Assembly (NCBI GenBank): GCA_021825655.1 | Contig: JAKAGU010000005.1 | Location: 12,400 to 76,399, forward strand | Reading direction: 5' to 3' | Length of the DNA: 64,000 nucleotides | DNA from: a bacterium | Lineage (GTDB): Bacteria; Patescibacteriota; Doudnabacteria; UBA920 | Shown: piece after piece, positions 14,441 to 62,892 of the stretch | Layout: each line of letters begins with the position of its first letter | Numbering within the stretch: position 1 is the stretch's first letter | Translations under genes and position numbers: made by a program | Notes under the pieces: generated by a model | Databases searched by the model: none | The model's input: the letters and a program-made list of their open reading frames with translations, nothing else | Told to the model about the DNA's origin: nothing

Positions 14441-15691
14441 ATGCCAAAAGAACACTACATTGTCGGTTTGGACGTAGGCACTTATGCGGTGCGGGCGGTC
14501 CAGGCCAAATATAACCCTGAAAAAAATGAATTCAGCGTAATTGGCGCCTCGGAAGTGGAGTCCCGCGGCGTGCGGCGCGGCGTCATCGTGGACATAGAAG
14601 AAGCCGTTTCTTGCATTTCCAAAACTTTGGAGCGCTTGGAGCGCATGACGGGCGTGCCCGTGTCCGCGGCTAACGTTTCGGTTTCCGGCGGGCACGTGTC
14701 CGCTTTGCAGTCCCACGGCGTGATTGCGGTTTCCCGGGCTGACGGCGAAATTTCAGAGGCCGATGTGGTGCGCTGCATTGACGCCAGCCAGGCCATCTCC
14801 ATCCCGCAGAACCGCGAGGTGCTCCACGTCTTTCCCAAGACTTTCACTTTGGACGGCCAGACCGGCATCCGCGACCCGCTTGGCATGAGCGGCATCCGTC
14901 TGGAAGTGGACAGCGTGATTGTCCAGGCCGGTTTGCCTTTTGTAAAAAATCTGACCAAAGCGGTCATGCAGGCGGGTTTGGAGATTGAAGACCTGGTTCT
15001 GGCGCCCTTAGGCGCCAGCGAAGCCGTGCTTTCCAAGCGCCAGAAAGATTTGGGAGTGTGCCTGGTGGATTTGGGTGCGGGTACGACCAGTATGGCCGTA
15101 TTTGAAGAAAGCGACCTTGTCCATACCGTGGTTTTGCCAGTGGGCAGCCAGCATATTACCAACGATATTGCCATTGGCCTCCGGTGCAGCATCGAGACCG
15201 CGGAGCGCGTGAAATTGGATTATGGCCATTCGGACCCGAAAGCTATTGCCCGGGACGAGGAGATAGATTTGTCCAAAATAGACCCAGGCGAAGAGCAGAA
15301 CACGACGCGCAATTACGTGGTCGAAATCATTGAAGCCCGCTTGGAAGAAATTTTTAACATGGTGAATGCGGAATTGAAAAAAATTTCCCGCGACGGCAAA
15401 CTGCCGGCCGGTATTGTGCTGACAGGCGGGGGAGCTAACTTGCCGGGCGTAGCGGATTTTGCCAAGAAGCATTTGCGTTTGCCAGTGACTATCGGCAAGC
15501 TCCAGAACATTTCAACCATTATTGACCGGGTGCAGGATCCGAGCTTTGCCACGGTTTCCGGTCTGGCCCTGTGGGGCGAAGAGTTTGGGCATGGCGGGGG
15601 CGGCGATTCCTTGTCCTCGGTCCTGAATAAATTTTTAAAACACCCCAAAGCGGAAAAGGTGAAGAGTTGGTTTAAATCTTTCCTGCCCTAG
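14441..15691 (+). CDS. ftsA: cell division protein FtsA
   Basis: Actin-fold ATPase (IVGLDVGTYAVRAV..., DLGAGTTSMAVF..., VLTGGGANLPGV) with a C-terminal amphipathic tail. Confidence 0.9.
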   Translation: MPKEHYIVGLDVGTYAVRAVQAKYNPEKNEFSVIGASEVESRGVRRGVIVDIEEAVSCISKTLERLERMTGVPVSAANVSVSGGHVSALQSHGVIAVSRADGEISEADVVRCIDASQAISIPQNREVLHVFPKTFTLDGQTGIRDPLGMSGIRLEVDSVIVQAGLPFVKNLTKAVMQAGLEIEDLVLAPLGASEAVLSKRQKDLGVCLVDLGAGTTSMAVFEESDLVHTVVLPVGSQHITNDIAIGLRCSIETAERVKLDYGHSDPKAIARDEEIDLSKIDPGEEQNTTRNYVVEIIEARLEEIFNMVNAELKKISRDGKLPAGIVLTGGGANLPGVADFAKKHLRLPVTIGKLQNISTIIDRVQDPSFATVSGLALWGEEFGHGGGGDSLSSVLNKFLKHPKAEKVKSWFKSFLP

Positions 15692-15911: not shown

Positions 15912-16040
15912 GTGCTACTTAATTTAGAGGTGTCCTTTGCGACAAGCAGGCGATTTTTCGTCTTTTTGTGGCAGAGGACACCTACGTGTGTTCCGAAGCC
16001 GCGCAGAGGTCCTCTGGCGATTTTTTCTGGGAGCGTTTAA
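15912..16040 (+). CDS. possible 42-aa leader peptide/uORF (GTG start) in the 5' leader
   Basis: Strong AGGAGG Shine-Dalgarno 5 nt upstream of GTG; the ORF spans both leader hairpins. It is below the ORF-track length cutoff. Confidence 0.25.
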   Translation: MLLNLEVSFATSRRFFVFLWQRTPTCVPKPRRGPLAIFSGSV

Positions 16041-16095
16041 CAGCGTTTCCAAAACCGGAATGTAGTTTAGACACAGACTCCATGGAGATGATTCG

Positions 16096-17400
16096 ATGAA
16101 ACGATTGACCCTGATGTTCGCCTTCGTGCTGGCGCTGGCCATCACGTTTTCTCACTCGGCTCTCGCGCAGTTTGGCGGAGCCGAAAACCCGGGGATCCAG
16201 GCCCAGGCAGATGCGGCACAGGCGAAAGCCGATGCCGCGGCTGCCAAGAAGCAGGCCGACGATCTCAAGAAAGAAGTGGACACGCTCAAGAAGGGCGGCG
16301 GCCTCACATCCGACAACACGTGGATGTGGTGGTTGCTGCTGCTGATTCCGATCGGTCTCGGGGCATGGTGGTTCTTTTTCCGTAATCGTGGAGAGGGGCA
16401 ACCGCCTATCGTTCCCGAACCGGCTGCGCCTGCGGAACCCGAGAATCCGAACCCGCCCGCTCCCGACAACGGTGGTGGCGAACCCCCGGCTCCTCCGGCG
16501 CCCGCACCGCAACCCGAACCGGCTGCGCCTGCGGAACCCGAGAATCCGAACCCGCCCGCTCCCGCTCCTAACCGCAACCCGAACCCGGCACCCATTCTGG
16601 ACGACGCAGCCAAAAGCAGGCTGAGGCAGACACTTCCGGTGATTGCTTTCGTGTTGCTTTTCAGTGGTCTCGCTTCTTCCGTCCGCGCCGCGAACTGCTT
16701 CAACACCGCGGCCCCGGTCGGCGGCGCCTCTCCGGTGCCGATCGCTATTGTGAAGGAATCCAACACCCTTCGCTGCAACAACTCCAGCCCTCTCACCGTG
16801 TTTGACGAGAGCGGCCGGGCAGTTGCCACGGGGACGCGGACTATCACCTTCACTCCCACAACCTCCGGCCGTTACCATATCCGCGCAGGCAGGGTCACCA
16901 TCAGTCCGCTGGTGGTCACGGACCGCTACGGCGCGTTCCTGATCAACGGCTCTGTGGATCTGTCCCGCGGTTCGGTCTCTTCGGCTGACGCCACGGCGCG
17001 CACTCAGGCCAAGCAGGCTGATGTCAAGGCCAACGCGGCAATGAGCCGGGTGACCACTACCGAGAAGTCGGTGGGGACGCTCAGTGACCAGATCAAGGCC
17101 ATCGCCGCCGCGCACGACCGACTGGAGGAGCGCGTCTCCGCTCTGGAAAGCCGGCCGGCCCCCCGGGTCGACCTGGCTCCTTTGGAGCAGCGCGTGGCCA
17201 CGCTCGAAGCCGAGCTGGCGCGAGTGAAGGCCACGGCCAACACTGCGCTCAGTACCGCGCAACAGGCAGATGCCAAGGCTACCGATGCCAACACCCGGTA
17301 TGAAGAGATGGGCCTTGCCCGGTTTAAGACCGGCCTGTTCCGTTCCAAAACCGTGGTTGAGGCCGTCGAAGACGCCAAAGCCAAAGCCAGCAAACAGTAG
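16096..17400 (+). CDS. secreted/membrane protein with a signal peptide, TM helix, proline-rich tandem repeats and C-terminal coiled coil; GC-rich
   Basis: Signal peptide MKRLTLMFAFVLALAITFSHSALA, TM WMWWLLLLIPIGLGAWWFFF, duplicated EPAAPAEPENPNPPAP module, Ala/Glu/Arg-rich heptad C-terminus. The region 15982-17496 is visibly GC-rich (about 60-65% by eye) against ~45-50% flanks. Confidence 0.7.
   Translation: MKRLTLMFAFVLALAITFSHSALAQFGGAENPGIQAQADAAQAKADAAAAKKQADDLKKEVDTLKKGGGLTSDNTWMWWLLLLIPIGLGAWWFFFRNRGEGQPPIVPEPAAPAEPENPNPPAPDNGGGEPPAPPAPAPQPEPAAPAEPENPNPPAPAPNRNPNPAPILDDAAKSRLRQTLPVIAFVLLFSGLASSVRAANCFNTAAPVGGASPVPIAIVKESNTLRCNNSSPLTVFDESGRAVATGTRTITFTPTTSGRYHIRAGRVTISPLVVTDRYGAFLINGSVDLSRGSVSSADATARTQAKQADVKANAAMSRVTTTEKSVGTLSDQIKAIAAAHDRLEERVSALESRPAPRVDLAPLEQRVATLEAELARVKATANTALSTAQQADAKATDANTRYEEMGLARFKTGLFRSKTVVEAVEDAKAKASKQ
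16417..16564 (+). repeat. Two identical 49-nt direct repeats (16417-16465 and 16516-16564), period 99 nt, in frame
   Basis: GAACCGGCTGCGCCTGCGGAACCCGAGAATCCGAACCCGCCCGCTCCCG occurs twice and encodes the duplicated Pro-rich module. Confidence 0.8.
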
Positions 17401-17522
17401 CACTACAATCGCCGTTCCCCGCACGCCTGTAAAAAGGCCGGCGGGGGACACACACTCGAAAAAAGGGCCGGCCTCACAGCTTGCCCTTTTTTCCATGCCT
17501 GTTTTTTATTTTGGTCAACCGA

Positions 17523-17536: not shown

Positions 17537-17658
17537 AAAAGTGCTGATTTTAATTGGATTTTGGCAGGCAAAAGAAGTGAGTTGTTTTTTTAAAAATGAA
17601 CCGTTTATGCTATAATTAATTTAAATTAAGCCAAAAATTAAGCATTGGAAACAAAAAT

Positions 17659-17982
17659 ATGAACCCTTCATTAACCTCCGCACAATATGTTGAAGATTTT
17701 TTGCAGGCGTTGTTAACCGAAGCTGGTATGGACACGGTTTCGGCTGAAGTCAAAGAACAGATGCTGACGGACTTAAGGGCCCGTTTGCAGGACCGGCTGT
17801 TCGGTACCATTGTTATGAATTTGAGCGACGGCAAGCTTACCGAATTCCGCGAATTGGTGGACAACGGCGGCTCGCAGGACGAGTTGGAAAAATTTGTGGA
17901 TGCCAATGTACCCAATTCGGCTGAAGTGTTTGCCCAGGCCATGATGACTTTTCGTAGCGATTATTTAGGCTTACAGGAATAA
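17659..17982 (+). CDS. small acidic helical protein (107 aa), first gene of the giant-protein operon
   Basis: D/E-rich, no TM; lies 26 nt upstream of the giant ORF. Confidence 0.6.
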   Translation: MNPSLTSAQYVEDFLQALLTEAGMDTVSAEVKEQMLTDLRARLQDRLFGTIVMNLSDGKLTEFRELVDNGGSQDELEKFVDANVPNSAEVFAQAMMTFRSDYLGLQE

Positions 17983-18008
17983 GCCTTTTTATTTTACCCA
18001 AATTAACT

Positions 18009-21000
18009 TTGCCCACTATGCCAGAAGGAGAAAATAGGGTTATTTTATCTTCCGATCTTGAGCCTAAGCCCAGCCGCGAACAACGCCAGGGGCAAGAGGG
18101 GAAAGAACAGCAAAAAGAAAAACTGAAAACGCGGGAATACTTGGACCGGGCGGTTTTGGAATTGAAAAATTTGCTAAAAGATTTGCCCCGAGACTCCAAA
18201 GAAGGCAAGCGCGCAGAGCATACCCTTAGGGCGGTGGAGTGGGCTTTGGGTAATTTGGGGAAAAATGGCGCGGGTGAAGGCAAGTACCGCCTGGAAATGA
18301 AAGACCACGAAGGCAAACCGGCCAAGTGGCCGGAGGGCAGTCCAGCAGTGCAGGACGAAGGCGTGCCCGTGGATGAGTTGATTGATTTGCTGAAAGGCCG
18401 CGCCCAAGAGCTGAATACTGAAGTCAGAAAAAAGGACAGCGTCAAAAAGAAAAAGCAAGCAATGGATGCACTGTGGGAGCGGTATAATTTGGCGCACGAG
18501 GTGGATTTAAAAGACCAGACGCACGATAAGGCCTGGGTGTATAGCCAGTGGGAGCAAGCCAAAAAGGCCTATGAGGCCGCCCAGGAAGCCTATGAATTGG
18601 GGTATGATGCAAAAGGCAAAGAGCTGGACGAACTGGCCGGGGAGCTTTACAAGCGGAGCGAAACTCACTTTCAGGCGCATTTCAGCCATGAGCTGCCTTT
18701 AAGCAAGGAAGAGTCCGACAAGCAGAATGTGCGTACTACCCATGAGGCGTATTTAATTCACCATGACTACCGCAAAACAAAAAACAAAGATCAGGATTAT
18801 CAGGCGGCCATGGATGCCATGGGCAAAAGAAGGGAACTGATTTTGGAAGAAAAGAAAGAGACTGAGATAATCCAGGGGCCGACGGGTCCGACTGAGGGTC
18901 CTGTGCAAGGCCCCACAGAAGGCCCCACAGAATTTATTAAAGGCCCAGAGCGCGTGGCTATTGTTAATGCCGAAGCGCAGGTAGAGCTTTTGGCCCGTAA
19001 GCGCGCCAACGAGAGGCTGACGGAAATGTTCAATGGCGCCGGACGGCTTAAAAAAATGTGGTATCGCGCCTGGGAAGAAGGCTACCGCCAGCAGCTGATT
19101 GACGAAGAGCGCAAGAAAATTTTAGGCGAAGGCAACAAAGCCAACTGGCTAAAGCGCAAACTGTTCGGGGCAAAGGAGTTTGATGCCACGGGCAAGAAAA
19201 ATTTGTTTGCCGGTACGGCTTCGGAAGGCGAAAATAAAACCGAGCTAACGGCTTTGGCTGAGCGGTTTTCCAAAGGCTACATTAAAGAATCGGAAGGCGA
19301 ACAGAAAGAGCAGCTGCAAGACCCCGAATTCAACAGCCAGCTCAATGACTTGGTTTTTAAATATGTGGAAGGCGGACTGTCGGACGAAGAATTTGAGAAG
19401 CAGAAAGATGAGATGATTGCGGCTATCGGTAAAAAATATCCGGAGAGTTTTGCGGCCGGCAAATTGACAGCGGACAATTTTTTGGAGGCGGCGCGGGAGT
19501 TTAAGAAAATCCACGAGCATTCCAAAAAGCTGGCCCGGGTGGATATCAATCTGGGCATAGATTTGGGCAATGCCAAGCAGGCCATCAAAACCCAGGCTAA
19601 CCTAAAATGGACGGACAGGATGATTGCCAAGCTCCAGAAATACCCCGGCATTGGCCATGTGTTTACTCCGGGCAGCGTAGGGTTTGGGGTTTCCGTGGGT
19701 GGCTATTTATTTAAAAAACCTTTGTATTTTGTGGGCGGCGCGGCGGGCGCGGGCGGCATCTTAGGCGGCATGCGGCGCAATTTTGAGCAGAAGCGCGATT
19801 TGGAAATGCACCGCATTGAAGCGGCCATGGGCAATAAGATTGCGGACTATGGACCGGCAGCCAAGCGCCGCCAGGAAATGGAAAAATATGTGCATGAAAT
19901 GAAAAATGCCTCCGAAGTGAGCGCGGAATTGGCCAGTTTGCGCGCGGCTTTCGAAGCCGGGCCCAGCCCTGAAAATGCGGCGGCTTTAACCAAGCTTTTG
20001 GCGGAAACGGAAGCGCGTATGTCGCTTTCCGAAGAACGGCAGCGGGATTTGATTTCTTTTGACGGCGAAACTACGCTGGAGCGCGGCCGGCTGTTTTTGC
20101 TAAAAGAACTCGCCGAGGCCAAAGTAAAGCTGGGTAATAAGGGCTTTGATTCCAATATTGCCGGCAGCCAGGACTATAAAGATTTTATGGCTTCTTTGGG
20201 CGGCAATATGGACAAATTGGAAAAAAGCGAAAAGTACAAGCGCTGGAAAGAAAACACGAAAGCCGCAGCCGTGGGCGCAGTTACCGGATTGGTGGTGGGC
20301 GGCTTGGCCCAGCAGGGGGCAGCGGAAATCGGCGACCGTGTTTCCTGGCTTTCCTGGCTGCGGCCGGGAGGCCGGGCTACGGGCATGGAGCGGCTTTATC
20401 ACTTTGTTAAAGGCGATTTGCCGACCGCGCCTTCGGGTGCGGGTTTGGCTGAAGTGGTGGGGATTGCCGGCGCGCACGGCACTGTTAAGATTGACGGCTC
20501 CACTGAGCTGGTCCAAAATCGGTCAACCGGCTTATGGAATCTGGTGGATAAGGCCGACCATACCAAAATTTTGGCGGAAATGGATATAGATCCCGCATCA
20601 GGACAGCTTACGCCCCGGCCGGGGAGCTTTGACCATAACCTTATTGATTTTTCTTCCCGCACCGCGGGCGGCGGGCACCGGAGCGTGGCCGAATGGATGC
20701 AGGACAGCCGCGCCGGCTTGCCGAAGGGGGCAAATATGGAGCATTTGCATACGGAGATGTTTTACGACAACGACACCCCGGCGCCAAAGTTTGATTTCAA
20801 CGAACTTCGGTTTTACATGCACGCAGATCCTCACGGCAACATTACCATGGATGCGGGCAAGATCCGGGAATACCTGGAAGAGAATTTTTCCCAAGTGTCG
20901 GGTTCCAGGCATGGCGAGCGGGCGTTGGATATTGTCAGTGCCTTTAAAAGCGGGGAGATAAAAATTGCCATCGCACCTGACCCGGACCATCCGGGAGAAA

Positions 21001-22694
21001 TGTTCACTTTCCAGCCAAATGCCGCAACGGGTGAATATGTGCTGCCTGCAGGCAGTGAAGTTGCCAAAATGTTCGGTGTGGACGGCTCGGGCAATGTTAC
21101 CTATAAAGGCAACGGCTTTATGGGCATGATAGAAAACCCCAAAGGCAGTGCCGTTGCCCGCTGGATAAACAGTATCCGTGGCAACGGCGAAGCCATTGAA
21201 ACAGGTCCGGGCCAGCGCGTGATTAATGAGATTACCAGGAAGTATCCGCGCGAATGGTGGATGCCCTGGATTGGCATTTTCAGGCGCAAGGCTCTGGAGC
21301 AAAAGCAGAAAAAAGAATTGGGCGGCGAACAGAAGGGGAAGGGCTCGCCTGGCCAGGAAGGCGAAGGCCACGGCAATGAAAAGCCGATTATTGTGGATAC
21401 GGAAGGCAAAAAAATTGAACCAAAGTTTATCTACTTTGAGGAAGAGGAAGAAACCGAGGAAGCGATAAAGAAAAAGCTGCTGGGTAAAAAGTTTAAACAG
21501 AAGGTGGCTGTGGATACGCGCGGCCAGAAAATTACCAATGACCGCAAAGATTACGGCAAAGACTACCCGCAGAAGTTTCCGTTTAAGGACGAAAAGCAAA
21601 TGGCCGATTATCTGGTCAACGTGCTCAAGGGGACGGGCAAATTTTTTGCCCGGGCAGAAGATTTGGATGCGCTGAAAAAATTGGACCAGGCTGGCAAGGT
21701 GAAGTTTTTGGAGGAGCGGATTAAAAAAGCCCGCACGACCGGCCTGGAGCTGCGCGACGGAGTCATTAAGCCGGAGGCGGCCCAGGAGCTGACCAGTTTC
21801 GTGCTGAACCGGGTCAATGAAGAGTTTGCCAAGTACGGGCAGGCGGGCCGGAGCGAAATGCCGGATGCCAGCAAAGTGCATATTGTCAGCATTTACGAGT
21901 TCCAGGCCCAGGCCGAATTGGGCGGCCGGGACGCTTTGGGCCTGTGTTTTACCCAAAACGGCGAAATTTTCATCAATTATGAGCTAATAAAAGAGGCGGC
22001 GGCCAACAGCGACGAATTTGTCCGTGAATTAAAGCGCACAATTGCCCACGAAGTGGTCCATGGGGGCGCGGCGGCCAACTATTGGGCGTTTGAACAGGAG
22101 GCCGACGGCAGCGACGGGGTGTTTGTGCAGAGGCGCACGGGTTTAAAAATGGTCCGCAGGGAAAACGCTTCCACCGACCTGGTCCGTGAGCGCGGCCGTG
22201 CGCTGAACGAAGCGGTTACTGAAACCCTGGCTAAGGATATTACCGACAGGATATACAAAGACGAAGGCGCCAAACAGGTTACTTACCGCAGCGAGCCGTA
22301 CCAAGATGAACGCAATGTGCTGAAGCTCATGCAGGAAAAATTCCATATTCCGTTTACGGCCTTTGCGGAAGCCGTAGTCAACCGCAAAGCCTTAAAAAAT
22401 TTGGCAGAACTTCTGGACGGCAAGAGCCAGGAAGGTAACAAGGTGGAGCGGCCTCAGTTTATGTCTTTGCTTATGTCGATTATGGATTACGAGCACAACG
22501 AGCATCACTTCGATTACGCCAAGACCAAGCAGCTTATTCAGGGGGCTAAGGGCCTGCAGATAACCCCGGAGATGAAATTGGCTTTCCCGGCATCGCTTTT
22601 GGACCGCGCCGGCAACATCAAAGCCAGTCTGGTTGAGCAGTACGACTTGGTAGACATGGATGCAGTAAGAAAACTCCGTCCCAAAGCCGCCTAA
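18009..22694 (+). CDS. giant protein (1561 aa): charged N-terminus, two glycine-zipper hydrophobic segments, C-terminal HExxH zincin-like motif
   Basis: K/E-rich low-complexity N-terminus with GPTEGP repeats. Gly-zipper stretches GSVGFGVSVGGYLFKKPLYFVGGAAGAGGILGG (~19670-19770) and AAAVGAVTGLVVGGLAQQGAAEIG (~20266-20335). HEVVH at 22047-22061 in the context TIAHEVVHGGAAANYWAFEQE. No signal peptide. Confidence 0.8.
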   Translation: MPTMPEGENRVILSSDLEPKPSREQRQGQEGKEQQKEKLKTREYLDRAVLELKNLLKDLPRDSKEGKRAEHTLRAVEWALGNLGKNGAGEGKYRLEMKDHEGKPAKWPEGSPAVQDEGVPVDELIDLLKGRAQELNTEVRKKDSVKKKKQAMDALWERYNLAHEVDLKDQTHDKAWVYSQWEQAKKAYEAAQEAYELGYDAKGKELDELAGELYKRSETHFQAHFSHELPLSKEESDKQNVRTTHEAYLIHHDYRKTKNKDQDYQAAMDAMGKRRELILEEKKETEIIQGPTGPTEGPVQGPTEGPTEFIKGPERVAIVNAEAQVELLARKRANERLTEMFNGAGRLKKMWYRAWEEGYRQQLIDEERKKILGEGNKANWLKRKLFGAKEFDATGKKNLFAGTASEGENKTELTALAERFSKGYIKESEGEQKEQLQDPEFNSQLNDLVFKYVEGGLSDEEFEKQKDEMIAAIGKKYPESFAAGKLTADNFLEAAREFKKIHEHSKKLARVDINLGIDLGNAKQAIKTQANLKWTDRMIAKLQKYPGIGHVFTPGSVGFGVSVGGYLFKKPLYFVGGAAGAGGILGGMRRNFEQKRDLEMHRIEAAMGNKIADYGPAAKRRQEMEKYVHEMKNASEVSAELASLRAAFEAGPSPENAAALTKLLAETEARMSLSEERQRDLISFDGETTLERGRLFLLKELAEAKVKLGNKGFDSNIAGSQDYKDFMASLGGNMDKLEKSEKYKRWKENTKAAAVGAVTGLVVGGLAQQGAAEIGDRVSWLSWLRPGGRATGMERLYHFVKGDLPTAPSGAGLAEVVGIAGAHGTVKIDGSTELVQNRSTGLWNLVDKADHTKILAEMDIDPASGQLTPRPGSFDHNLIDFSSRTAGGGHRSVAEWMQDSRAGLPKGANMEHLHTEMFYDNDTPAPKFDFNELRFYMHADPHGNITMDAGKIREYLEENFSQVSGSRHGERALDIVSAFKSGEIKIAIAPDPDHPGEMFTFQPNAATGEYVLPAGSEVAKMFGVDGSGNVTYKGNGFMGMIENPKGSAVARWINSIRGNGEAIETGPGQRVINEITRKYPREWWMPWIGIFRRKALEQKQKKELGGEQKGKGSPGQEGEGHGNEKPIIVDTEGKKIEPKFIYFEEEEETEEAIKKKLLGKKFKQKVAVDTRGQKITNDRKDYGKDYPQKFPFKDEKQMADYLVNVLKGTGKFFARAEDLDALKKLDQAGKVKFLEERIKKARTTGLELRDGVIKPEAAQELTSFVLNRVNEEFAKYGQAGRSEMPDASKVHIVSIYEFQAQAELGGRDALGLCFTQNGEIFINYELIKEAAANSDEFVRELKRTIAHEVVHGGAAANYWAFEQEADGSDGVFVQRRTGLKMVRRENASTDLVRERGRALNEAVTETLAKDITDRIYKDEGAKQVTYRSEPYQDERNVLKLMQEKFHIPFTAFAEAVVNRKALKNLAELLDGKSQEGNKVERPQFMSLLMSIMDYEHNEHHFDYAKTKQLIQGAKGLQITPEMKLAFPASLLDRAGNIKASLVEQYDLVDMDAVRKLRPKAA

Positions 22695-22800
22695 GCGAGC
22701 TGTGAGTTTAAATAAACCCCGCCCCCGGAGGCGGGGTTTTTGCTTATTTTAAAAGCGTTATGCTATAATTCAGTCAGCTTCTTTGATAAGCGATATTTTT

Positions 22801-22829
22801 TTGCAAAAACCGGTTACATAGTTTATAAT
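22801..22829 (+). promoter_or_regulatory. promoter TTGCAA-17-TATAAT ending 6 nt before the ftsZ start codon (ATG 7 nt past the -10), implying a leaderless ftsZ mRNA
   Basis: Hexamers and spacing read directly; ATG at 22836 with no room for an SD. Confidence 0.5.
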
Positions 22830-47491: not shown

Positions 47492-48787
47492 ATGGCTGAA
47501 GATTATAACGCAGATTTAATTACCCAACTTTTTCTTACTGACGACGTGGAAAAAGCTAAAGAAATTTCAGACGAAATGGTAGGCATAGGGAATCTAATTT
47601 TTCCTCGAATAATATACGAGGCATACAAAAAATTTAAAAACACGTCTAGCTCCCACTATTTTATCTCAGATCTTGCGGGATTTAGGTCACCTGAAGTAGC
47701 AGAAATTATGAAAGAAATAGCCCATGAGGCTACAAAATCTGCTGATTTTGAATTTACACTCGACTACCTGGCAGACATTGAATACTTCGATCCTACTATA
47801 ATCGAAAAAGCTAGCACCTTACTTAAGGACAAGCTATTCCTAAAAGGAACAGATGAGTATGACGTGGAAGCGTGCTTGGCGTATTTAAAAAAATCAAAAA
47901 ATGGCATAAAAGATTTAGAACCCGTATTACAAGCATGCTTTGAAAATGAGGGTCTTGCATACTCCCTAAGAACTAAGGTTCTTCGAGATCTCTTGGTCTC
48001 GAATAAACAACTCATTAACTATTACTACGAAAATTACGATAAAATAAAAAACAAAAAGGCCGAAATAATTTTTGCTGAAGAAATTTCTACATGGCAGGGA
48101 GGGATAATACCAGAACTTCATAAAAAGATTTTAAAAAACGGCTCTAGAAGGGCACAAGAAATCATAGAAGAAGCACAGACAAAAAGAACCAAAACAAAAG
48201 ATCAAGCCGAAAAAAAAGAACAAGAAAAGATAAAAGGTACATACGAAACAGCAGATATTGTTTCCGGCATTGCTGCATTAAGGACAAAGGTTAACAGGAT
48301 CAGCTCGGCTGATAAAAGGTTTGGCTTTCCTTTCTTTGCACAATCGGAAGAATTTTATGAACAAAATAAACCCGCTCAAAATAAAGCCTCTTTAGTGGGT
48401 TATTGTATGGTTCTACGAGAGTTCCTGCAAAAATTTGATGAAGCTATAAAAGATTCCGTGATCCCAGTAGACAAAGCAAAGCAATTTTTACCTGAAATAC
48501 AGGACTGGGGTGGAAGTATTAATAAATTTCACTATCTACTTTTGGATAAAGGTGTAACTGTAGATAAAGGAATTTTCGGTTTAAGAAATATAAATAGACT
48601 TGTTACAAAACTTGCACACCCAAACGAAACACTAGGGGAAGAATTTATTAATTTGTTGACTGAAGAAAAATTATTGGATATGTATACAAAAGACAACTGG
48701 TCACTGTTGCATAGAGAAATATTACTACGATATGAAAAAGTATTAGAAAAATTAATCGCAGCTCTTTCGGAGGGAAGTACTGGCTAA
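47492..48787 (+). CDS. hypothetical helical protein (431 aa) in an AT-rich island
   Basis: Long ORF with K/E/I-rich, AT-biased codon usage (about 35% GC by eye) unlike its neighbours; no motif recognised. Confidence 0.6.
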   Translation: MAEDYNADLITQLFLTDDVEKAKEISDEMVGIGNLIFPRIIYEAYKKFKNTSSSHYFISDLAGFRSPEVAEIMKEIAHEATKSADFEFTLDYLADIEYFDPTIIEKASTLLKDKLFLKGTDEYDVEACLAYLKKSKNGIKDLEPVLQACFENEGLAYSLRTKVLRDLLVSNKQLINYYYENYDKIKNKKAEIIFAEEISTWQGGIIPELHKKILKNGSRRAQEIIEEAQTKRTKTKDQAEKKEQEKIKGTYETADIVSGIAALRTKVNRISSADKRFGFPFFAQSEEFYEQNKPAQNKASLVGYCMVLREFLQKFDEAIKDSVIPVDKAKQFLPEIQDWGGSINKFHYLLLDKGVTVDKGIFGLRNINRLVTKLAHPNETLGEEFINLLTEEKLLDMYTKDNWSLLHREILLRYEKVLEKLIAALSEGSTG

Positions 48788-58305: not shown

Positions 58306-59151
58306 GCGGGAAGTTATGACTACTTTTTTGGAAGTGTTAGAGAGTTTTAAAAATTTGGAAACTGGGTCCCAGAAGACCGGAAAATACCTACAATTTAAGG
58401 TTTTGGCTTATTTAAGCTGAAAATTGTGGTTGTTTTCCGGCTTTTTGATTTTTTGGAAATTTGCCGGGAAATCTGTTTTTAAGGTGTAACAAACCCCAAA
58501 AACTAACGTCTATACATGTGTAAGTCCCAATTTTAGCCTCTGGTAAAGGTTAAAATAGGGAAAATGCCTAAAAACTGCTTATTTTTAGGCAAACAGCCTC
58601 CTATAATGGGGGGTGAATCTCTAGAAGTCTTGAAACAAAAACTCTTAAATTCAAGGCTATTTTATATATTTCGCTTATATATGCGAAACATATAACAGAA
58701 ACAAATGCGTTTTTATCCCAAAATGTTACTAAATGGCTCGAAAATGCATACAACATAGGGTTGAAAACGTATAACTTAGGTAACAAGCTTGGAAAAGTGC
58801 CTTTTTTACAGCAAAGGTACTTTTCCGGGCTGGTAACCCTGGTTAAATCCCTTCGGGTAAATTTAACTGGGCAAGTACGGTCCGGAAAATAATTTATTGG
58901 GCGCTTGCAGACGGCAAGCTGCCCTGGTCCCCGAAAAGCCTGTCTTTTTAGGGGGCGGTCGATCTTCGCGGCGCATAGTCGTCCGTGAACTAACCCAATA
59001 CATCTCGTCTTGCTACGAGTTTTAAGGCGATCTCTAGAGCGCTTTCAAGCAAACGGCCAGGCAGATGTAAAACCCAATTAATATTCTCTGAAAACCAGTT
59101 GATTGTCTCAATTGAATAATCAACCCTTCAGAGAGAGGATAAAACTCTAAA

Positions 59152-62100
59152 ATGCAAACTTCTGTCGCAAAGAAAATCTTTGCTGTAGGGGTAGCTGCTT
59201 CTACCGTTTTGATGTCCTTGGCTCCGTTCGCGGCTCAGGCTGCGTCCCACGCCGAAGGCACCAACGTTAAAGCTTCCGATGGTACGGTTTCCATGATCAT
59301 CGGTGGCCAGCGCCGCCCTTACACTTCCGCCGGTGCATTCCTTTCCTACGGCTTCAACTCCTGGAGCTCGGTTGTGGATGCTAACGCGGACGATTTGGCC
59401 CTTCCGGTCGGATCTTTCATCCCTCCGCAGGACGGCAAAATCATCTGCTCCGACCGCGGAGCTGACAAAGGCACCTGCTACCTGATTACCGGTGGCCAGA
59501 AAGCCGGCTTTACCAGCGCGGCTGTCTTTACGGGCCTTGGCTTTAGCTTCGCTCGCTCTCAAATGGGCGACGTGTCCTGGATGACCTCCACGACAAACAT
59601 TGACAACACCACCGCGGCTCACCGCGCTGGCGTGCTTGTCAACAACAACGGTACTGTCTACTTGGTCGGTGCTACCGGCCTTTTGGGCATTCCCGACATT
59701 GCTACCTTCAACAGCTGGGGTTACAGCTTCTCCGATGTCGTTGTGGCTAACGCCGCCGACAAGGCGATGTCCCAGACCGGCGTGATGGCTGCTCGCACTG
59801 CGGGCCAGCTTTCCCCGACTGCCTTGACCGGTTCCGGTTCTGGCAGCGGCAGCGGTAGCGTGGTTTCCGGCAATGTCAGCGCCATGTTGGCTTCTGACAC
59901 CCCGGCTGCCAATACTGTCATCACTACTCCGGTAGCCTCTCCTCAGCCCGCCGGTCAGTCTGTTGCGGATTTGGCTCATTTCGCCTTCTCCGGTTCCGGC
60001 ACAGTTACCCAAGTTGTCTTGAACAGAATCGGCATTTCTGCTGACACTGTCTTGAGCAACGTGTACCTGTACGTGAACAACAACAAGGTTACCGATGCGG
60101 CCAGTTTCTCCAACGGCGTGTTGACTTTCAACAACCCGGCTGGCATCTTTACCGTCAGCGGCAACACCGTTGTTTCGGTAAGGGCTGATATTGCTGGTGG
60201 TGTTGGCTCCGGCCAGACCATTGGTGTGCAGTTGTCTTCCTATACGGTTGCCAACGGTACCCCGGCAACTGTTTCCCTTTCTGGTAATCTCATGACCGTG
60301 GCTTCTGTTTCTGACATGGCTACTTTCACCTTGACCGCTGTTCCGACCCCGTCGGCCACCGGCAATGTGACTGCTGGCACTATGAACCAGAGCCTGTGGT
60401 CCGGCAACTTCAACGTGGGTACCCGCAAGGTCAACCTGAAGTATGTGGCCTTCAAACAGGTCGGCTCCGTGCCGGTTGGTTCTTTGCAGAACATGAAATT
60501 GTACGTGGCCGGTTCCCCGGTTGGCTCTCCTGTAGCCACCCTGGACTCCACCAACAACGTAGTGTTTGATATGTCCGGTTCCCCGGTGACTTTGAACACC
60601 GGTTCCCAGACCATTGAACTCCGCGGTGATGTAATTAAGGGTTCTTCCTTTAACTACACCTTCCGCATCCAGACGTCTTCTGACATTGTTGCGGTTGACA
60701 CCAACTATGGCGTTAACCTTCCTGTAGCCTTGAGCGGCGGTGCGGTTTTGCCCGCTACCACGGCTGCCCAAACCATTTCCCAGGGTTCTACTTCCACCCA
60801 GCAGGATGCTTCTTTCACGCAGACTCAGGTGGTCAAGAATTCCTCTAACGTGACTTTGGGCCAGTGGACCATGAAGGCTTACGGCGAAGATGTCAAAGTC
60901 CAGACCATGAATGTCGTGGTCAACTACTTTGACTCCACCGGCGCTGCCACTACCACGACTGCTACCGAAGGCTTTAACAACCTCGGTATCTACGTGAACG
61001 GCGGTATGGTTGGTTCCTCTCAGACCACTGTGGCTCAGACTGGCACCACCCACACTAAGACCTATGGTACGACCAACTTGTTCACCATCCCGGCCGGTAC
61101 TACCGTGACTATCGCGGTTAAGGGCGACATGGCTTTGGACTCCGGCACGAAAGTGGCTTCTGTCCGGGCTGACATTGTTACCCCGGCCAACTCCATGCAG
61201 GGTGTGACTTCTTACCAGACCTTCCCGACTAACCCGGCCACCTTCCAGGGTGTGTCCCAGTCTGTGGTCACTTCCAGCATTACCTTGGCTAAGAATGGTT
61301 CTTTGGCCAACGGTACTCTTAGCACCAATGTGGCTAAGCAGAAGATTGGTTCTTACACTGTCCAGGCTTCCAGCGCTGACGGCGTGAGAGTTTCCAGCCT
61401 GACTGTGGCCATTTCCGGTACTTTGGGCACCACCAACCTGGCTAACCTGTACATCCAGACCCCGTCTGGCTCTGCTACTCCGGTTAACCCGCAGCCTTCC
61501 AACAACTTCTCCGTTGACTTCACGGTTGCGGCCAACCAGGCTGCCACGGTTGATGTCTACGCTGACGTTACCAATGCCACCGGCACTGTGACCACCACCC
61601 TTTTGGGTACGGGCACGGGCACGGTCAGCGGCCAGACTGTTTACTTAAACTCCACCGGTTTGTCCGGCGGCGCTGCGGTAACCGGCCAGACCATGACTTC
61701 CGGCACTGGCACTATTACCAACCCGCCGACTTTGAACACCGGTTCTTCTCCGGTGGCCCAGTTCGTGGTTGGCTCTACCAGCAGCACCAACCAGCCGTTG
61801 GCGACTTACACCTTTGTGTCTAGCAGTGGTGCGTCGACCATCACTGAGTTGCACTTCACCGTTTCCGGCACCAACACCCCGACTGACACCCCGATTACGA
61901 AAGTATACGTGGGCGGCCAGTCCGGCAACGTGCTGAACAACGGTACCACCGAGACGGTTACTGTGACCGGTTTGAACATTTCTGTGCCGAACAGCACAGC
62001 AGGTTTGAACGTGCCGGTTACGGTTGACTTTGCTCCGGTCAGCTCCACGGGCGGCGTTGCGTCCGGTAAGACTGCCTATTTGACCTTGACTTATGTCAAG

Positions 62101-62664
62101 TACACTTCCGGTGGTGTTACCACGACCTTCAGCCCGAGTGTTGCTTCCCCGACCATGACCTTGGTTGCGTCTAAGCCCACTGTGGCCGCGACTCAGCCGA
62201 CCAACAAGTTGGCTGTTGCCAACATCGAAGCTATTGACGTAGCTGTTACGGCTGACGCCAATGGCGACATTACGCTCAACAGCATTCCGTTGACCATTGG
62301 TTTGAGCGGCGCGCAGGCGAGCTCCACCTCGACCAGCAACATTCTTGTTTACAGGTCTACTGACCTGACCACCAACATTGCCACTTCCAACACTGCGTTG
62401 GGCGCGGTTACTGGCGGTACCAGCACTGTTACCTTGGACAACACCAAGACCAGAATTACTGCTGGCCAGACTTTGAATTTGAAGGTCTTCGTCACGTTGA
62501 CCCAGGTGACCTCTGCCACTTCCGGCAGCGACTCCATGGCGACCAACATGGCGACTGGTTCCGGCTTTAGCTGGACCGACACTGCTGGCGGCGGCTCTGC
62601 CACCACCGGCACTTCGCTCATCTCCGGCTACCCGAGCACCTTCACCTCTATTGTTACCAACTAA
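59152..62664 (+). CDS. large secreted Thr/Ser/Gly/Ala/Val-rich surface protein (1170 aa), candidate S-layer protein
   Basis: Signal peptide MQTSVAKKIFAVGVAASTVLMSLAPFAAQA; three N-terminal ~40-aa repeats (..AGAFLSYGFNSWSSVVDANADD.., ..AAVFTGLGFSFARSQMGDVSW.., ..IATFNSWGYSFSDVVVANAAD..); a long beta-rich, low-charge, nearly Cys-free body. Confidence 0.75.
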   Translation: MQTSVAKKIFAVGVAASTVLMSLAPFAAQAASHAEGTNVKASDGTVSMIIGGQRRPYTSAGAFLSYGFNSWSSVVDANADDLALPVGSFIPPQDGKIICSDRGADKGTCYLITGGQKAGFTSAAVFTGLGFSFARSQMGDVSWMTSTTNIDNTTAAHRAGVLVNNNGTVYLVGATGLLGIPDIATFNSWGYSFSDVVVANAADKAMSQTGVMAARTAGQLSPTALTGSGSGSGSGSVVSGNVSAMLASDTPAANTVITTPVASPQPAGQSVADLAHFAFSGSGTVTQVVLNRIGISADTVLSNVYLYVNNNKVTDAASFSNGVLTFNNPAGIFTVSGNTVVSVRADIAGGVGSGQTIGVQLSSYTVANGTPATVSLSGNLMTVASVSDMATFTLTAVPTPSATGNVTAGTMNQSLWSGNFNVGTRKVNLKYVAFKQVGSVPVGSLQNMKLYVAGSPVGSPVATLDSTNNVVFDMSGSPVTLNTGSQTIELRGDVIKGSSFNYTFRIQTSSDIVAVDTNYGVNLPVALSGGAVLPATTAAQTISQGSTSTQQDASFTQTQVVKNSSNVTLGQWTMKAYGEDVKVQTMNVVVNYFDSTGAATTTTATEGFNNLGIYVNGGMVGSSQTTVAQTGTTHTKTYGTTNLFTIPAGTTVTIAVKGDMALDSGTKVASVRADIVTPANSMQGVTSYQTFPTNPATFQGVSQSVVTSSITLAKNGSLANGTLSTNVAKQKIGSYTVQASSADGVRVSSLTVAISGTLGTTNLANLYIQTPSGSATPVNPQPSNNFSVDFTVAANQAATVDVYADVTNATGTVTTTLLGTGTGTVSGQTVYLNSTGLSGGAAVTGQTMTSGTGTITNPPTLNTGSSPVAQFVVGSTSSTNQPLATYTFVSSSGASTITELHFTVSGTNTPTDTPITKVYVGGQSGNVLNNGTTETVTVTGLNISVPNSTAGLNVPVTVDFAPVSSTGGVASGKTAYLTLTYVKYTSGGVTTTFSPSVASPTMTLVASKPTVAATQPTNKLAVANIEAIDVAVTADANGDITLNSIPLTIGLSGAQASSTSTSNILVYRSTDLTTNIATSNTALGAVTGGTSTVTLDNTKTRITAGQTLNLKVFVTLTQVTSATSGSDSMATNMATGSGFSWTDTAGGGSATTGTSLISGYPSTFTSIVTN

Positions 62665-62892
62665 CAATTGGGTATAGTGCTTAGGCCTGTCCTAAGATGC
62701 GTTGGCTGAAACGTTAAATCAGCACAAACTCCTCCGCCCCCCAAAGGGCGGGGGAGTTTTGTTTAGGCTTGAAAAAACCTGTAAAATATGCTAAAATATA
62801 TGGGTAATTTAAGAAATCAGAAACGGCTCAAATCTTATTTGACGGGGTAAACATTTGACGGGGCAAACTTAGAATTAATTGAAAATAATTAG

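Follow-up and report, generated by a model that had tools for sequence, protein, structure and literature searches.

A giant protein of Patescibacteria with a divergent zincin-like domain, a conserved glycine-zipper core and a DUF5663 partner

The long open reading frame (ORF) at 18009-22694 (+) of a 64-kb stretch of DNA (henceforth the window, meaning the whole stretch that was analysed) is a real, conserved gene for a giant protein, in which a divergent zincin-like domain stands on a scaffold of the candidate phyla radiation (CPR), a combination not described in the literature searched. The window belongs to the ordinary core chromosome of a Patescibacteria (CPR) bacterium; the labels of related contigs read Candidatus Doudnabacteria or 'Patescibacteria group'. 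Our favoured explanation, to which we give a probability of about 0.5, is that the protein is a scaffold-tethered zinc metallopeptidase of the gluzincin type, localised by its core and probably facing the cytoplasm of its own cell. An initial annotation had given the ORF 1561 amino acids (aa). The frame is indeed open, but all homologues begin with MPE or MSE, and initiation is therefore most likely at ATG 18018, which leaves a protein of 1558 aa. Residues are numbered here from the Met at ATG 18018 as 1, so that H1347, E1348 and H1351 of the initial annotation become H1344, E1345 and H1348. A word-indexed search returned 12 orthologues, full-length or partial, with 34-100% identity, most of them being of full length at ~1470-1720 aa. 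Searches of Pfam, NCBIfam, PADLOC and PDB sequences gave no match for the giant protein, in agreement with the earlier statement that it belongs to no annotated family; the PADLOC models, which describe anti-phage defence, matched neither the giant protein nor the small DUF5663 partner encoded next to it.

The zincin-like domain

HExxH is present once in the giant protein, at residues 1344-1348, where H1344, E1345 and H1348 are invariant among the close relatives, as are N1354, Y1355, W1356, R1372, R1373, G1375 and the terminal Ala. Further invariant positions (E1391, R1392, G1393, R1394, L1396, E1398, A1399 and E1402) lie on the helix of the presumed third ligand and form the motif ERGRxLNEAxTE. 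The initial annotation had pointed to the HExxH together with downstream Glu candidates. Its HEVVH stands, but the FEQE glutamates are not conserved among the relatives and were rejected as metal ligands; judged from conservation, the third ligand is most likely E1398 within the ERGRxLNEAxTE motif. The NEAISD sequence of thermolysin is the gluzincin N-E-x-x-S-D helix, the Glu of which is the third zinc ligand. As a sequence pattern NEAVTE of the window protein mirrors this helix, E1402 matching the acidic residue of the NExxSD-type motif, and the motif evidence for a zincin is strong.

Residues 1160-1558 were modelled with AlphaFold2 (AF2) from an alignment of close relatives (mean predicted local distance difference test, pLDDT, 74.7; predicted template modelling score, pTM, 0.73). 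In the model, helices and a small beta-sheet are followed by a long helix carrying HExxH (172-191 in model numbering), a loop, a long helix carrying NEAVTE (235-256, with the whole ERGRxLNEAxTE motif) and the helical C-terminal subdomain. The loop has 40 residues, is of low confidence and carries the invariant NYW and RRxG. H1344, H1348 and E1398 would presumably converge in space as a metal site; the three residues may bind zinc with E1345 as the catalytic base, and the domain would be an active gluzincin-type peptidase. On searching for homologues of the domain, we found both HExxH and (N/T/D)E(A/G)xxE to be retained in 24 of 26 cases, which include lineages with recoded UGA at 26-34% identity. 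The remaining two (P0016 and P0017) keep the scaffold of the zincin domain and have lost both the HExxH (AEALL and FSTET) and the NEA glutamate, and are by their sequences apparent pseudo-enzymes. Such coupled retention or loss of the HExxH and NEA motifs is what a single metal site predicts. The proposal of a probably zincin-like domain with an HExxH conserved in orthologues has thus held up as far as the invariant motif, the AF2 model and the pattern among the homologues go.

Against Pfam and NCBIfam the domain gave no match at E<=0.01, and at E<=10 only single-member, chance-level matches to SprT-like and Peptidase_M1 families; the C-terminal profile did not match any PDB sequence, and a Foldseek search of the zincin model against the PDB returned no match at E<1. 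Because the Pfam, NCBIfam and PDB sequence searches are negative, we take the domain to be a very divergent zincin outside the curated families. When compared with the gluzincins (MEROPS clan MA(E): thermolysin M4, M1 aminopeptidases, M13 neprilysin-like), it shares the HExxH on a helix and, in the AF2 model, an NExxxD/E-type Glu on a downstream helix, but it has no sequence-family match. Moreover, 50 residues instead of ~20 separate the second His from the Glu, the insert being the one with the invariant NYW and RRxG, and the domain adds a C-terminal helical subdomain ending in Ala-Ala and sits behind a 1150-residue scaffold. With PDB 3cmn (a putative hydrolase of Chloroflexus aurantiacus) and YbeY (7y7o, 1xm5) the identity is 8-18%, and neither was recovered by Foldseek. 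The metal site of YbeY, an RNase, consists of three histidines, unlike the HExxH and Glu pattern of the window domain.

The linear motif VDTRGQK..DRKD..YP.KFPF that precedes the domain has R1168, G1169, Q1170, D1178, Y1183 and P1184 invariant, is modelled with pLDDT < 50, and is also found in a homologue that uses genetic code 25; that it is a docking, inhibitory or processing site is speculation. At the other end, the zincin subfamily closes with an (almost) invariant Ala-Ala (residues 1557-1558, 22686-22691), and AA also terminates ~9 proteins of the wider family that carry other tails. By analogy, this ending is reminiscent of C-terminal degradation or recognition tags.

The family core, its tails and the DUF5663 partner

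An exhaustive hidden Markov model (HMM) search with residues 405-1558 against 1.84e9 representatives (clusters at 50% identity) revealed a much wider family, matching 980 cluster representatives at E<=1e-3, of which 408 reached E<=1e-30. Word-indexed searches with the zincin and core alignments had added 1 and 4 proteins, respectively. Most of the members have 1000-1900 aa, match only profile positions 1 to ~700 and are without HExxH. The family is known so far from Patescibacteria/CPR, named sources including Candidatus Magasanikbacteria and 'glycosyltransferase [bacterium]'. What is shared is a core of ~700 residues (window residues ~405-1094), in which a pre-hairpin region, two apolar segments, a charged segment, a third apolar segment and a beta-rich domain follow each other up to a terminal P..(I/V)P..R.PLE motif (WWMPWIGIFRRKALE in the window protein). 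The window residues match the core profile with an E value of 2e-212, the window sequence being one of its ten rows, and phmmer with the window core alone recovers distant members at E values of 1e-33 to 1e-42. No PDB sequence matched the core profile.

For the majority of the wider family, the match to the core begins ~135 residues from the N-terminus. The corresponding part of the window protein is longer and had been described as K/E-rich and of low complexity. K and E do make up 25-29% within residues 1-500, but the homologues align well there and the region is therefore not simply of low complexity, which is limited to the Pro-rich linker at residues 287-309; both the length and the sequence of this linker vary freely between homologues. 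The GPTEGP tandem repeats exist, but they amount to merely 2.2 copies of a 12-nt unit inside the same variable linker and were rejected as a noteworthy feature. The N-terminus itself, MPEGENRVILSSDLEPKPSREQRQ, is hydrophilic and, as judged by its residues, has no hydrophobic stretch like that of a signal peptide, as the initial annotation had stated.

Beyond the core the wider family has a median of 441 residues. On dividing 141 of these tails by iterative clustering, a GT2-like (glycosyltransferase family 2) domain was found directly after the core in 78 cases, the zincin in 16 and a GT9-type (glycosyltransferase family 9) tail in 10, the remaining 37 falling in none of the three classes. The Pfam domains seen in the tails are GT2, GT9, Ser/Thr kinase (Pkinase), calpain-like (Peptidase_C2), DUF362 and a weak HopA1. 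Where kinase, calpain-like and DUF362 modules occur (P0087, P0074, P0041), the tails also bear a GT2-like domain; in P0041 the GT2 match at 912-984 is followed by DUF362 at 1351-1553 in Pfam coordinates. By its sequence the window protein is thus a minority variant with a presumed peptidase in the slot usually held by a glycosyltransferase. The tails differ between deep branches of the family only, and within the subfamily core and zincin diverge together from 100% down to 34% identity.

Two kinds of unusual relatives were encountered. In two loci (L010 9911-14959 and L011 9962-15004) the N-terminal extension and the zincin are shared with the window protein at E values of ~1e-99 and the middle region fails to match the core profile, having analogous, more hydrophobic Gly-rich segments instead. 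From these alignments both ends seem to have been kept, whereas the core was apparently exchanged for another or has changed too far to be recognised. In five others (L012 and L013, on contigs labelled 'Candidatus Peribacteria', and L024-L026, on unlabelled metagenome contigs; all with a GC content of 0.34-0.38) the zincin-bearing giant protein is encoded only when UGA is taken for a sense codon. The gene in L012 has 22 in-frame TGA codons and is an open frame of 1567 codons under table 25. The taxon label of these metagenome-assembled genomes (MAGs) must be in error, or else the genetic code assumed for them.

The initial annotation had named a small ORF at 17659-17982 as a possible conserved partner, and this is fully confirmed. 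The ORF is a member of Pfam DUF5663 (PF18908), lies 35 nt upstream of the giant start on the same strand, and a DUF5663 homologue adjoins the giant gene in every locus for which flanking sequence is available. In at least 15 independent loci (the window, L001, L003, L004, L005, L007, L009, L010, L011, L014-L018, L020 and L021) the homologue immediately precedes the giant gene at a distance of 1-45 nt, and in L012 and L013, the two code-25 loci, it immediately follows it. The partners have 100-107 aa, an isoelectric point (pI) of 4.2-4.7 and a conserved C-terminal F-(R/K)-x-x-Y-(L/I)-G. No relative of the partner profile was found among PDB sequences, and the Pfam entry gives no function. In the literature searched on DUF5663, Patescibacteria glycine zippers and CPR giant proteins we found DUF5663 nowhere mentioned, and neither the core family nor the constant association of the two proteins described.

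An anonymous giant ORF has in this way become a family of ~1000 clusters with an obligate small partner, a conserved core and an enzyme slot that varies by lineage, and the pairing gives DUF5663 its first genomic context. CPR/Patescibacteria represent much of the diversity of bacteria, and the protein families that set them apart mostly lack a known function; 106 mostly unannotated CPR-enriched protein families were reported by Méheust et al. 2019 (PMC6744442). The zincin variant offers the easiest experimental entry, since its catalytic residues can be predicted, mutated and assayed. If the family acts at the membrane of its own cell, it would point to CPR-specific envelope biogenesis or protein processing, and if exported it would be a candidate host-interaction system.

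Membrane association and competing explanations

The Gly-rich stretches of the giant protein had been read as glycine-zipper elements for membrane insertion or pore formation. Transmembrane (TM) glycine zippers are GxxxGxxxG packing motifs of membrane channels and toxins. The (G/A/S)xxxGxxxG spacing is real and is shared by the three apolar segments ([GAS]xxxGxxx[GAS] motifs start at 553, 575, 576, 749 and 753), the glycines of all three are among the invariant alignment positions, and those of the third (G753, G757, G761) are invariant in the alignment of close relatives. Their hydropathy does not follow suit. On an additive translocon-type scale applied in 19-residue windows (our own crude implementation), the three best segments score +8.1 and +8.6 (the hairpin, 547-585) and +7.0 (the third segment, 748-769), against -2.9 to +0.6 for true TM helices encoded in the window (FtsX, LytR, ComEC, signal peptidase and the TM protein upstream) and +5.7 to +7.3 for the soluble controls FtsZ, GroEL and ribonucleotide reductase (RNR), also from the window. 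The segments are thus well below the TM helices of the genome in hydrophobicity, their length and hydrophobicity are inadequate for spanning a bilayer on this crude scale, and no Pfam Gly-zipper family matched the giant protein. The family consensus of the third segment includes a Lys and has Q-E at its end, and this segment is therefore unlikely to span the membrane; a further stretch, WWMPWIGIF, is only ~10 residues long. A topology with three or four membrane passes and the beta domain outside the cell was accordingly rejected, the third segment and WWMPWIGIF being too short or too polar. Across the wider family the best segment per protein has a median of +3.7 and none is < 0, some relatives being more hydrophobic (+2.2 to +3.0) and several approaching the TM range (+0.7 to +3). 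The sequence analysis of the Gly-rich segments gave no evidence of pore formation. Since these segments are far too polar for canonical TM helices and score like soluble proteins, the membrane-insertion or pore reading is unproven. They are conserved glycine-zipper segments but not canonical TM helices, and from their sequences membrane association, for example as a shallow or re-entrant hairpin, is possible.

For the scaffold-tethered metallopeptidase we picture a core that localises the peptidase, perhaps with DUF5663 as a chaperone or adaptor, and a ~65-residue flexible K/E/G linker (residues 1095-1160) on which the peptidase domain would be held. Its site is probably the cytoplasmic face of the cell's own membrane, reached by way of the glycine-zipper pair. 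The cytoplasmic side is preferred because there is no signal peptide, because the third apolar segment is unlikely to span the membrane, which leaves at most two crossings, and because the sister modules GT2, GT9 and Ser/Thr kinase need nucleotide-activated co-substrates that are found only in a cytoplasm. Support also comes from the invariance of HExxH, NYW, RRxG and ERGRxLNEAxTE, from the retention of the domain in UGA-recoded lineages, and from the housekeeping neighbourhoods in which the gene is found (ftsA, ftsZ and RNR here; the ribosomal operon and SecY, IF-2, or sigma-70 elsewhere). Weighing against it are the lack of sequence-level membership of the zincin-like domain in any peptidase family, the soluble-like scores of the Gly-rich segments, which keep the membrane tethering putative, and the indirect nature of the sidedness argument, which would equally fit delivery into the cytoplasm of another cell.

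Such delivery is the essence of the explanation as an exported, host-directed effector, in which DUF5663 would assist secretion as a chaperone or adaptor, the weakly hydrophobic glycine-zipper pair would enter the membrane of the target cell after translation and the C-terminal enzyme, here a zincin, would act in or on the host. A small acidic partner beside its client generally resembles chaperone-effector pairs, the family as a whole has moderately hydrophobic apolar segments, the tails include kinase, calpain-like and weak HopA1-like modules, a VirD4/TraG-like ATPase is encoded directly 5' of DUF5663 in two syntenic loci, and CPR bacteria are thought to be episymbionts (PMC6744442). Yet the protein has neither a signal peptide nor, by Pfam and NCBIfam, a recognisable trafficking domain, no secretion-system gene was seen among the scanned ORFs of the 64-kb window, and inheritance is vertical and syntenic amid housekeeping genes. 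Further, there is no conserved immunity-like ORF downstream, where the genes vary by locus (ftsZ, DPBB_1, UvrD, TIG, CorA), and the majority tail is a GT2-like enzyme of biosynthetic type; we consider export to a host unlikely. An equally doubtful place is given to its broader form, in which DUF5663 and the giant protein make up an undescribed, CPR-wide two-component platform, the acidic partner keeping the glycine-zipper pair soluble for export and the pair inserting in the host membrane. The weakly hydrophobic pair would then provide targeting for a GT2-like enzyme (sometimes followed by a kinase or calpain-like module), a GT9-type tail or a zincin, and the zincin, if this were true, would be a host-directed protease of an episymbiont. 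The initial annotation had likened the protein to polymorphic toxins or effectors, among which zincin-like peptidase toxins do occur. A conserved N-terminal and central region, a boundary motif and then alternative C-terminal enzymes are indeed found here, but the resemblance is superficial and the hallmarks of such systems are missing: a trafficking domain is not recognisable, no immunity gene adjoins the giant gene (in the window it is followed by a terminator and by ftsZ), tails do not vary like cassettes among close relatives, the synteny is that of the core genome and the dominant tail is GT2-like.

That the giant protein is soluble and cytoplasmic, with the glycine-zipper segments as buried, packed helices of a globular or filamentous scaffold and no membrane involved, would account for hydropathy values equal to those of FtsZ, GroEL and RNR and for the missing Pfam glycine-zipper match. 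This is rather improbable in view of the paired 17-20-residue uncharged stretches rich in A/G/S/V, which have basic flanks and are conserved in ~150 members, and of the several relatives whose apolar stretches come near the TM range. The position between ftsA and ftsZ could also suggest an accessory role in cell division, the protease processing or regulating some component of the divisome such as FtsZ or FtsA. However, ftsA upstream and ftsZ downstream were found only in the window, L001, L003, L010 and L011 (in L023 ftsZ directly follows the giant gene and the short contig stops before the upstream side), L004, L005, L009 and L020 of the zincin subfamily are without this arrangement and have no ftsZ within reach, and the wider family is in unrelated neighbourhoods, adjoining elsewhere the ribosomal operon and SecY, IF-2, sigma-70 or CorA. 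Proximity to ftsA and ftsZ is confined to one clade, and ftsZ is set off from the giant gene by a strong terminator followed by a promoter-like site of its own; a dedicated division role is therefore very unlikely, and a match to MATCAP is one of ~50 equally weak zincin matches. Finally, the degenerate versions in P0016 and P0017 raise the prospect of a catalytically dead pseudo-peptidase retained only as a binding module. The presumed catalytic residues are strictly kept in the window protein and 23 homologues, down to 26-34% identity and across a change of genetic code, which makes this the least probable of the explanations.

Transcription unit, neighbourhood and other features of the window

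The features of the giant gene and its surroundings are collected in Table 1. With its own promoter-like site and a strong terminator, the DUF5663 gene and the giant gene look like a two-gene unit of their own, in which the weak hairpin overlapping the DUF5663 stop is by its sequence a possible partial terminator or attenuator between the two. An operon with ftsZ was rejected on account of the strong terminator and the limitation of the adjacency to one clade. The ftsZ ORF as listed begins at TTG 22740, in the terminator region; the conserved protein begins at ATG 22836, ~7 nt past a promoter-like -10 box ending at 22829, and as far as these elements indicate, the mRNA of ftsZ may have little or no leader.

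Table 1. Features of the giant gene, its protein and the adjoining transcription signals (window coordinates)
Feature	Residues	Position	Strand	Remarks
Promoter-like site TTTAAA-16-TATAAT with TG, 5' of DUF5663 ORF		17589..17616	+	consensus scan only, 10/12 matches
Partner gene, 107-aa acidic protein, pI 4.2, DUF5663		17659..17982	+	Pfam PF18908, E 4e-10
Weak hairpin (7 bp, 3 GC) and T-run overlapping DUF5663 stop		17967..17995	+	
Giant gene		18018..22694	+	1558 codons and stop, from ATG 18018
K/E-rich N-terminal extension	1-286	18018..18875	+	subfamily-specific
Pro-rich low-complexity linker GPTGPTEGPVQGPTEGPTE	287-309	18876..18944	+	length variable among homologues
Conserved pre-hairpin region	310-545	18945..19652	+	family core starts near residue 405
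Two glycine-zipper apolar segments joined by KKP, putative helical hairpin	547-585	19656..19772	+	conserved in ~150 family members
Charged segment	586-747	19773..20258	+	conserved R, D, E, H; helical/coiled-coil assumed only
Third glycine-zipper segment	748-769	20259..20324	+	AxxxGxxxGxxxG
Beta-rich domain	800-1077	20415..21248	+	family-wide invariant motifs DNDT..NEL, GS.HG
WWMPWIGIFRRKALE, conserved P..R.PLE motif	1080-1094	21255..21299	+	closes family core
Variable K/E/G-rich linker	1095-1160	21300..21497	+	
Conserved linear motif VDTRGQK..DRKD..YP.KFPF	1163-1190	21504..21587	+	modelled disordered
Zincin-like catalytic domain	1191-1415	21588..22262	+	
HEVVH, putative zinc ligands and catalytic base	H1344, E1345, H1348	22047..22061	+	invariant
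NEAVTE, putative third zinc ligand	E1398	22206..22223	+	invariant
C-terminal helical subdomain ending in Ala-Ala, then stop	1416-1558	22263..22694	+	
Strong intrinsic-terminator-like hairpin (10 bp, 7 GC) and T-run		22714-22739 (region to 22749)	+	between giant gene and ftsZ
Likely ftsZ start		ATG 22836	+	promoter-like site 22800-22829 precedes

The local order is ftsA (14441-15691), a TM protein (16096-17400), DUF5663, the giant gene and ftsZ. Genes scanned in the rest of the window include those for topoisomerase I, DprA, Der GTPase, signal peptidase, HisRS, adenylosuccinate lyase, RNR, ComEC, RelA/SpoT, GroEL, MetK and transketolase, besides FtsA and FtsZ. In the TM protein encoded at 16096-17400 (+), in the interval from ftsA to DUF5663, a signal peptide and a single strong TM helix (MWWLLLLIPIGLGAWWFFF) are accompanied by a Pro-rich spacer, and the Ala-rich C-terminal part looks by eye like a coiled coil; the gene is kept at this position in L001, L003 and L007, and the 504-aa antisense ORF at 15982-17496 is probably spurious. 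In L001 (2772-9511 of the Doudnabacteria MAG JBBREH010000016) AbiEii-family and DUF6922 genes, a toxin-antitoxin-like insertion, are present between ftsA and DUF5663, and the ftsA-ftsZ interval therefore tolerates insertions.

Elsewhere, an 845-aa VirD4/TraG-like ATPase (DUF8128 and T4SS-DNA_transf) is encoded directly 5' of the DUF5663-giant pair in L015 (5106-7640) and L016 (5111-7648), two syntenic loci, where it sits just after the ribosomal operon and SecY. It may link the pair to an export step of the coupling-protein type, and is a lead rather than a pattern.

Two other regions of the window may be mentioned. Between 46000 and 50000 the GC content drops from ~0.52 to 0.38-0.45 across ~4 kb, and a 431-aa ORF in this stretch (47492-48787) is without a Pfam match; the region may be a horizontally acquired island. 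A 1170-aa ORF at 59152-62664 (+), also without a Pfam match, is nearly covered by antisense ORFs at 59128-61053 and 61645-62667 (-). The GC skew turns negative at 59128-62667, either strand there may be the coding one, and the region may encode a second large orphan protein.

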